Shown here: positions 33,805 through 33,850 of the stretch, piece after piece
Position numbering within the stretch: position 1 is the first letter of the stretch
How the letters are laid out: each line of letters starts with the position of its first letter
Virus genome (UHGV): UHGV-0129090
Direction: 5' to 3' (one strand)
DNA from: a virus
DNA length: 34,582 nt
The notes under the pieces: generated by a model
The model's database searches: none
Told to the model about the DNA's origin: nothing
The model's input: only the letters and a program-made list of their open reading frames with translations
Position numbers and translations under genes: made by a program

Positions 33805-33843
33805 CTACTTACCTCCATTCACTGTGGTGTACATCCTATCACA

Positions 33844-33850
33844 ACTGTTC
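33844..33850. repeat. attR core: 7-bp identity ACTGTTC shared with attL
   Basis: See attL. The phage-side arm (33829-33843) together with 673-693 forms an imperfect palindrome when joined (the reconstructed attP). Confidence 0.75.

Follow-up and report, generated by a model that had tools for sequence, protein, structure and literature searches.

In phages that integrate by means of a serine integrase, attP usually adjoins the integrase gene int, as in phiJoe, where the site lies 18 bp upstream of int; such attP sites are short and dyad-symmetric with inverted repeats (PMC5311408). The C-terminal domain of large serine recombinases (LSRs) contacts an entire 25-bp half-site, and in the published model the zinc-domain motif of attB is shifted by about 5 bp towards the centre relative to that of attP (PMC3783163). 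An integrated attP-int cassette of Bxb1 is excised upon provision of gp47 in trans, unlike an int-minus derivative (PMC1470463). The SPbeta integrase gene sprA is constitutively expressed in lysogens, excision being triggered when the recombination directionality factor (RDF) is expressed (PMC5499854). State-dependent int promoters are known from ICEclc and ICEKp1, in which transcription from the far end of the element reads through into int in the circular form and a weaker promoter, either the element's own or that of the host, serves the integrated state (PMC5812530, PMC13023037). In KplE1 and P4 the int promoters overlap att and are autorepressed (PMC2951348).

The locus described here lies in a window of 34,582 nt, the whole stretch of DNA that was analysed, in which yegD of E. 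coli is interrupted by a 33.2-kb prophage of about 38% GC. Megablast matches of the left flank of the window, present in 5,412 E. coli genomes, stop at position 672, and the right flank was matched in 5,415 of the 5,426 complete E. coli genomes. In genomes with an empty site the left-flank match likewise stops at 672 and the right-flank match starts exactly at 33844. The two flank matches share a 7-bp overlap in ATCC 8739; this sequence, ACTGTTC, is the identity between attP and attB and is present at 666-672 (attL) and at 33844-33850 (attR). Mapping of the junctions against empty sites thus delimits the phage DNA to positions 673 to 33843. The 5′ part of yegD (2-672, plus strand; B side), which is annotated in L001, closes with the 7-bp identity in its attL copy. 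The 3′ part (33851-34532, plus strand; B′ side), identified by its match to E. coli genomes and by annotation, is antisense to the direction of int, confirming the initial annotation, which had placed antisense yegD before int in the prophage.

YegD is an Hsp70-family chaperone, and the 5′ fragment of its gene terminates at a phage-borne TAG directly after the 7-bp identity (2-676). On the other side, an open reading frame on the plus strand starts at a TTG at 33768 in phage DNA, crosses attR and continues in frame with the 3′ part of yegD (33768-34532). The presence of a serine-integrase prophage within yegD is reminiscent of reversible gene disruption of the SPbeta/spsM type. Nearly all open reading frames of the prophage are on the minus strand, and a divergent repressor gene is not evident.

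A related int is found at yegD in 20 of the 5,426 complete E. coli genomes, with identities of 88.8-95.9% in the attR region; phage genes of the attL side are common to only two of these 20. No nucleotide match to the prophage was found in the phage collection. Among the yegD prophages of the sister lineage, five from E. coli strains of different continents (L002-L006) are fragmented in the same way, with the large terminase in two to three coding sequences and the portal in two (e.g. L004 11515-15382). In the phage of the window, the large terminase and the portal are single long open reading frames (21064-22977 and 19063-20559). Decay common to these prophages could account for the splits, as could artefacts of sequencing or annotation; alternatively, the genes may truly be split. 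Some of these sister prophages carry IS2 or ISKpn26. The stretch that separates the early genes from the terminase holds defence-like cargo encoded on the opposite strand, namely an ATP-dependent nuclease in L002 (7089-8909) and L003 (8048-9868) and a SMODS nucleotidyltransferase with a SLATT protein in L004 (9617-10917); its position looks like that of a variable defence hotspot.

The int gene (32206-33804, minus strand) codes for a protein of 532 aa with the N-terminus MKVPVWCYARISTLKQ. By its domain content Int is a large serine recombinase, and a tyrosine integrase is ruled out. A resolvase-type catalytic domain (PF00239, Resolvase; 26.3 bits, cut-off 23.3) with the serine nucleophile Ser12 in a YARIST motif is accompanied in the C-terminal part by PF07508 (Recombinase; 27.2 bits, cut-off 21.1) and PF13408 (Zn_ribbon_recom; 29.7 bits, cut-off 25.3), all three matches exceeding the Pfam gathering scores. 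A sequence search of the PDB with Int gave no match at E ≤ 0.001, and the best identity to known phage serine recombinases in tblastn was at most 30%, the matches of 23-30% identity being to phage enzymes of Burkholderia, Pseudomonas and Xanthomonas. Judged by these identities Int is therefore a diverged LSR. Searches with PHROGs of the small open reading frames near both prophage ends gave no relevant matches and no RDF candidate. At and just past the 3′ end of int, two promoter-like sites close to consensus on the minus strand face the next genes: TTGACA-17-TATAGT (32194-32222) and TTGAGA-18-TATAAT with a TG (31863-31892).

Directly upstream of the int ATG at 33804 an in-frame TAG is found. 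The Shine-Dalgarno (SD) sequence GGAGG (33812-33816) is located 7 nt from the ATG in a 19-nt leader (33805-33823, minus strand) that is kept in the E. coli relatives. The initial annotation had given the ATG, the SD, the start of the 7-bp identity at 33844 and the resulting gap of 39 nt (33805-33843) correctly.

Joining of the two phage ends yields a rebuilt attP of 52 bp that is dyad-symmetric about a T|C step at 33849|33850, 45 nt from the int ATG, with 19 of 28 positions symmetric (binomial p = 1.4e-5). Three attP variants of the sister lineages share this centre, with 19-20 symmetric positions out of 28; across the four variants p ranges from 1e-5 to 2e-6. The inverted-repeat arm GTGGTGTACAT (33824-33834) is mirrored at a distance of 30 nt by ATGTACGCCAC (687-697). 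These arms belong to two half-sites of 26 bp, the int-proximal AACAGTTGTGATAGGATGTACACCAC (33824-33849, read on the minus strand), delimited by the dyad symmetry, and the far, attL-side CGTAGTTGGTAAAGTATGTACGCCAC (672-697), for which the same geometry is seen in the three sister variants. The interval 33805-33850 is thus made up of the 19-nt int leader with its SD and one attP half-site.

In size and form the 52-bp site fits the serine-integrase attP sites described (PMC5311408), and it has no arm-type sites. Since it is a dyad-symmetric attP of serine-integrase type, the 7-bp 'core' is merely an extended identity around a central crossover dinucleotide. This dinucleotide is probably the TC at 33849-33850; we infer the position of cleavage from the junction mapping and from the dyad centre, which is located inside the 7-bp identity. 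The terms 'P′ arm' and 'core' in the initial annotation, borrowed from the vocabulary of tyrosine integrases, are therefore not appropriate for this serine recombinase with its simple attP of about 52 bp. In both attP half-sites GTACRCCAC starts at position 18, and in the B half-site (L001 about 1000-1010; window 640-672) GTACCACC starts at position 12, thus 6 bp nearer to the centre. This shift fits the published model for the zinc-domain motif (PMC3783163); the B′ half-site is without a clear motif.

The spacing between int and att in homologous elements, a comparison that the initial annotation had called for, was analyzed in five whole elements, two IMG/VR contigs, one Pluralibacter gergoviae locus and six metagenome loci; one IMG/VR contig ending at the int ATG and one unusable match of 28% identity were excluded. 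Ten E. coli-type elements (from E. coli and metagenomes) have a gap of 39 nt from the ATG to the 7-bp identity; this gap is 41 nt in Pluralibacter and 44 nt in two other elements. The variation in length is confined to the stretch between the repeat arm and the ATG; the distance from the 7-bp identity to the repeat arm is invariant at 9 nt. In each whole element the outermost gene of the far side shares the orientation of int, with its stop codon 40-47 nt from the 7-bp identity and 14-22 nt from the repeat arm. The eight informative relatives that the scans of IMG/VR, GTDB and metagenomes provided are all integrated attR forms, and an exact-pattern scan for the rebuilt attP in IMG/VR and metagenome contigs found no intact attP or circular form.

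An attP abutting int is the norm for serine-integrase phages, and Bxb1, phiJoe and phiC31 already show this layout. The published attP sequences of Bxb1 and phiC31 each had a unique exact match in the respective reference genome. In Bxb1 (L010) the attP 43-mer is at 3448-3490 and the int ATG at 3492, which places the central GT 24 nt from the start codon; in phiC31 (L011) the central TT is 58 nt from the int start. With attP ending 1 nt before the ATG, the promoter and ribosome-binding signals of Bxb1 int must also overlap attP. Excision of the integrated Bxb1 cassette needs int, and the gene is therefore expressed with host DNA only 24 nt upstream of its start codon.

The phage studied here shares with Bxb1, phiJoe and phiC31 a large serine recombinase and a short, dyad-symmetric attP directly upstream of a co-oriented int; it differs from them in its host, E. 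coli, in its target, yegD, and in an Int that has no match in the PDB. As in Bxb1 and phiC31, the gene upstream of attP is on the same strand as int, whereas in phiJoe a divergent RDF gene lies across attP. A strong hairpin followed by a U-run separates the upstream gene from attP in Bxb1 (z = -3.7) and phiC31 (z = -1.9); the studied phage and its sister lineage have none. These terminator-like hairpins of Bxb1 and phiC31 are located at L010 3355-3405 and L011 3290-3345, respectively. With SPbeta and its SprA/SprB system our phage has in common that a serine-integrase prophage splits a host gene. SPbeta differs by its Gram-positive host and its developmentally controlled excision, and no similarity of att sites or sequence to SPbeta was found.

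At the far end of the prophage a block of four open reading frames with overlapping stops and starts (720-2346, minus strand) is co-oriented with int and ends 47 nt from the 7-bp identity. The block encodes a GIY-YIG SegE-like protein of 145 aa and proteins of 192 aa, 106 aa and 97 aa, the last with a hydrophobic C-terminus; Pfam and PHROGs put a name on the GIY-YIG gene alone. Homing-endonuclease-like genes in this prophage are free-standing and comprise the GIY-YIG SegE-like gene (1909-2346) and an HNH gene (30886-31491). As the initial annotation had proposed, integration severs int from all upstream phage DNA, which the geometry supports, and in the circular form, as rebuilt across attP, this block reading from 2346 to 720 comes to lie upstream of int. 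The absence of a hairpin with a T-run between position 720 and the 7-bp identity also held: a scan of 673-720 was empty, and the 50-nt RNA from the stop to the 7-bp identity is unstructured (z = -0.9). The last stop codon is 22 nt from the attP inverted repeat in the window and 14 nt in the sister lineage, where no terminator was found in these 14 nt of room between the stop and attP. With a co-oriented operon and no terminator before attP, read-through would therefore add int transcripts only in the circle.

The arrangement resembles that of ICEclc and ICEKp1 in that int is located at one end of the element and outward transcription from the far end would reach it only after circularisation, no terminator intervening between the far-end unit and int in the circular form. 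Both elements differ from the studied phage, which has a serine integrase and a far shorter gap, in being conjugative and in having tyrosine integrases and mapped promoters. A search near the far end for a conserved promoter comparable to Pcirc found none above background in either lineage. Ahead of the terminal block, a consensus scan found a promoter-like site, TTGATA-17-AATAAT (2369-2397, minus strand; 10/12 matches), although the regional count of such sites is not above that of shuffled sequences.

Only 19 nt separate the half-site from the ATG, and therefore, as a matter of geometry, any int promoter must overlap the binding site of Int itself. A candidate is an extended -10-like element, TGATAGGAT (33833-33841, minus strand), which contains TAGGAT and lies entirely between the crossover and int. 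TAnnAT is found at this position in 7 of 7 sequence variants, the relatives having TATGAT, TATTAT, TAGTAT and, in one variant, a perfect TATAAT, and TGn precedes it in 5 of 7. The pattern TGnTAnnnT occurs 2.1 times per kb and strand, so that about 0.09 would be expected in 40 nt. However, the conserved repeat arm includes the last two bases of the hexamer, and AAGTAT, AAGAAT or AATAAT stands at the mirror position of the far half-site, which leaves the first base (T versus A) as the only one specific to the int side. Because of this overlap and mirroring, much of the conservation of the -10-like element may be due to recognition by Int.

In that its putative int promoter region would coincide with binding sites of the recombinase at the att junction, from which self-repression is predicted, the locus resembles those of KplE1 IntS and P4 Int (PMC2951348). 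The latter are tyrosine integrases whose arm-type and core-type sites extend over 80-170 bp and whose RDF likewise binds DNA, in contrast to the single 26-bp half-site of our phage, which one subunit of a serine-integrase dimer is predicted to occupy. An assignment to the KplE1/P4 paradigm was rejected on the grounds that the enzyme is a serine recombinase and no tyrosine integrase, and a similar mode of action is possible. Sequestration of the int SD was also considered. The base of a long RNA hairpin spanning attP (z = -3.1) pairs with the SD in both lineages, but pairing of this extent was equalled in 10-56% of trials in which the flank was shuffled or the upstream RNA was replaced by random phage sequence. 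As such sequences pair with the SD equally often, this idea was dropped.

Taken together, these features suggest a model that we favour tentatively and give somewhat less than an even chance, in which attP and int form a module supplied by read-through in the circle and by a weak, att-overlapping promoter, with autoregulation by Int and an RDF that sets the direction of recombination. In the circular genome int would be directly downstream of the terminal operon without a terminator and would receive extra transcripts by read-through, in analogy to Pcirc of ICEclc and the 3′-end promoter of ICEKp1 (PMC5812530, PMC13023037). Integration would cut this link and leave int with the weak promoter, for which the likeliest candidate would be the -10-like TGATAGGAT in the half-site combined with a -35 from the adjoining DNA. 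The level of Int in a lysogen would then be low and non-zero. An Int dimer on attP or attR would cover this promoter and reach to 8 nt from the SD, so that int would be negatively autoregulated; the geometry, with the half-site filling the space up to that point, makes the self-occlusion put forward in the initial annotation plausible. The direction of recombination would be set by the RDF and not by switching int on or off. Expected would be a quantitative shift, high in the circle and low in the prophage, like that of Pcirc and Pint in ICEclc, and independent of a split promoter. Against this model it can be said that every promoter call is a consensus match, that promoter function and recognition by the integrase are confounded in the -10-like hexamer, and that the promoter-like site of the operon does not exceed the shuffle background. 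If the terminal operon is a late one, read-through would moreover come too late to help in establishing lysogeny. Intact attP or circular forms are also absent from the public contigs scanned (IMG/VR, metagenome).

The initial annotation had explained int expression differently, by a sigma70 promoter that is split by the crossover, so that int would be on in the circle and off in the prophage. We consider this explanation very unlikely. The two hexamers do exist on the rebuilt attP, TTACCA (683-678; 4/6 matches, minus strand, within the far half-site) being followed after a 17-nt spacer by TAGGAT (33838-33833), and IS circles do have split junction promoters: in IS911, a -35 and a -10 at opposite ends of the IS make a strong, experimentally shown promoter, Pjunc, once they are joined. 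Unlike Pjunc, the match in attP scores 8/12, below the limit of 9/12 used in our promoter scan, and is at chance level: sites with at least 4 + 4 matches and a spacer of 16-18 nt occur in this phage at 8.9-10.3 per kb and strand, with about 0.4 expected per 40 nt. Nor is the -35 conserved, the slot being occupied in the sister lineages by TTGCAT with an 18-nt spacer or by TTCATG. The proposed restriction of the promoter to attP fares no better, as attR retains the same -10 and has TCAGCA at the same spacing in the -35 slot, with 3/6 instead of 4/6 matches and a total of 7/12; exclusivity to attP thus comes down to one base. A TAnnAT element is present entirely on the int side in every relative, a situation of the kind that the initial annotation itself had named as refuting its proposal. 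For these reasons we do not regard the match as evidence for a promoter peculiar to attP, and assignment to the split junction promoters of IS circles was rejected. A complete off-state of int after integration is likewise unlikely because excision by a serine integrase needs Int together with the directionality factor. A silent int would block excision of the prophage, and both Bxb1 int (PMC1470463) and SPbeta sprA (PMC5499854) are expressed in the integrated state.

Two further explanations have to be weighed against our tentative model of read-through, a weak att-overlapping promoter and autoregulation. The adjacency of attP and int may be without regulatory meaning, the two forming a compact module with a similarly low and approximately constitutive level of Int in both states, so that only the directionality factor matters. 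The constitutive expression of sprA in SPbeta lysogens (PMC5499854) and the lack of any promoter match above chance at our locus agree with this explanation, which is nevertheless somewhat unlikely in our view: both lineages have no terminator and a stop codon 14-22 nt from the repeat arm, which makes some difference in read-through hard to avoid, and occupancy by Int of a 26-bp half-site reaching to 8 nt from the SD would hardly be neutral. Alternatively, int in the lysogen might be driven from the host side, either by yegI transcription that crosses about 690 nt of yegD′ in antisense or from a hybrid promoter with TCAGCA as a host-derived -35. For ICEKp1 such borrowing is documented, the tRNA-Asn promoter being used when the element is integrated (PMC13023037). 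Here, yegI is on the int strand, converges on yegD and ends about 12 nt past the yegD stop, and the minus strand of 33851-34582 has two weak 5-bp hairpins and no strong terminator. An antisense transcript of about 700 nt that is not translated would, however, be a good substrate for Rho-dependent termination, the same strand of 33851-34582 contains no promoter with at least 9/12 matches, and TCAGCA matches the consensus in 3/6 positions only, all of which makes a host-driven int quite improbable.

Overall, the locus as it stands combines the textbook attP-int layout with a new serine integrase that targets yegD and has a defined attP and attB. A state-dependent supply of int transcripts and self-occlusion by Int are reasonable for such a locus and already established for other elements. 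It is possible, though doubtful, that int has no private promoter space, so that its sole promoter would be in its own attP half-site and self-repressed and circularisation alone would couple int to the terminator-less operon, giving a two-level supply that senses the state of the element. If true, this would be the first state-dependent int promoter switch for a serine integrase or a phage, as the documented cases that we found are ICEs with tyrosine integrases. If this were confirmed, two control principles of tyrosine-integrase elements, state-dependent read-through into int and self-repression of an att-overlapping promoter, would be extended to a serine-integrase phage, with E. coli as a tractable host. 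The upstream context of attP would then set the supply of Int, which would be relevant also to users of attP-int cassettes as integration tools.
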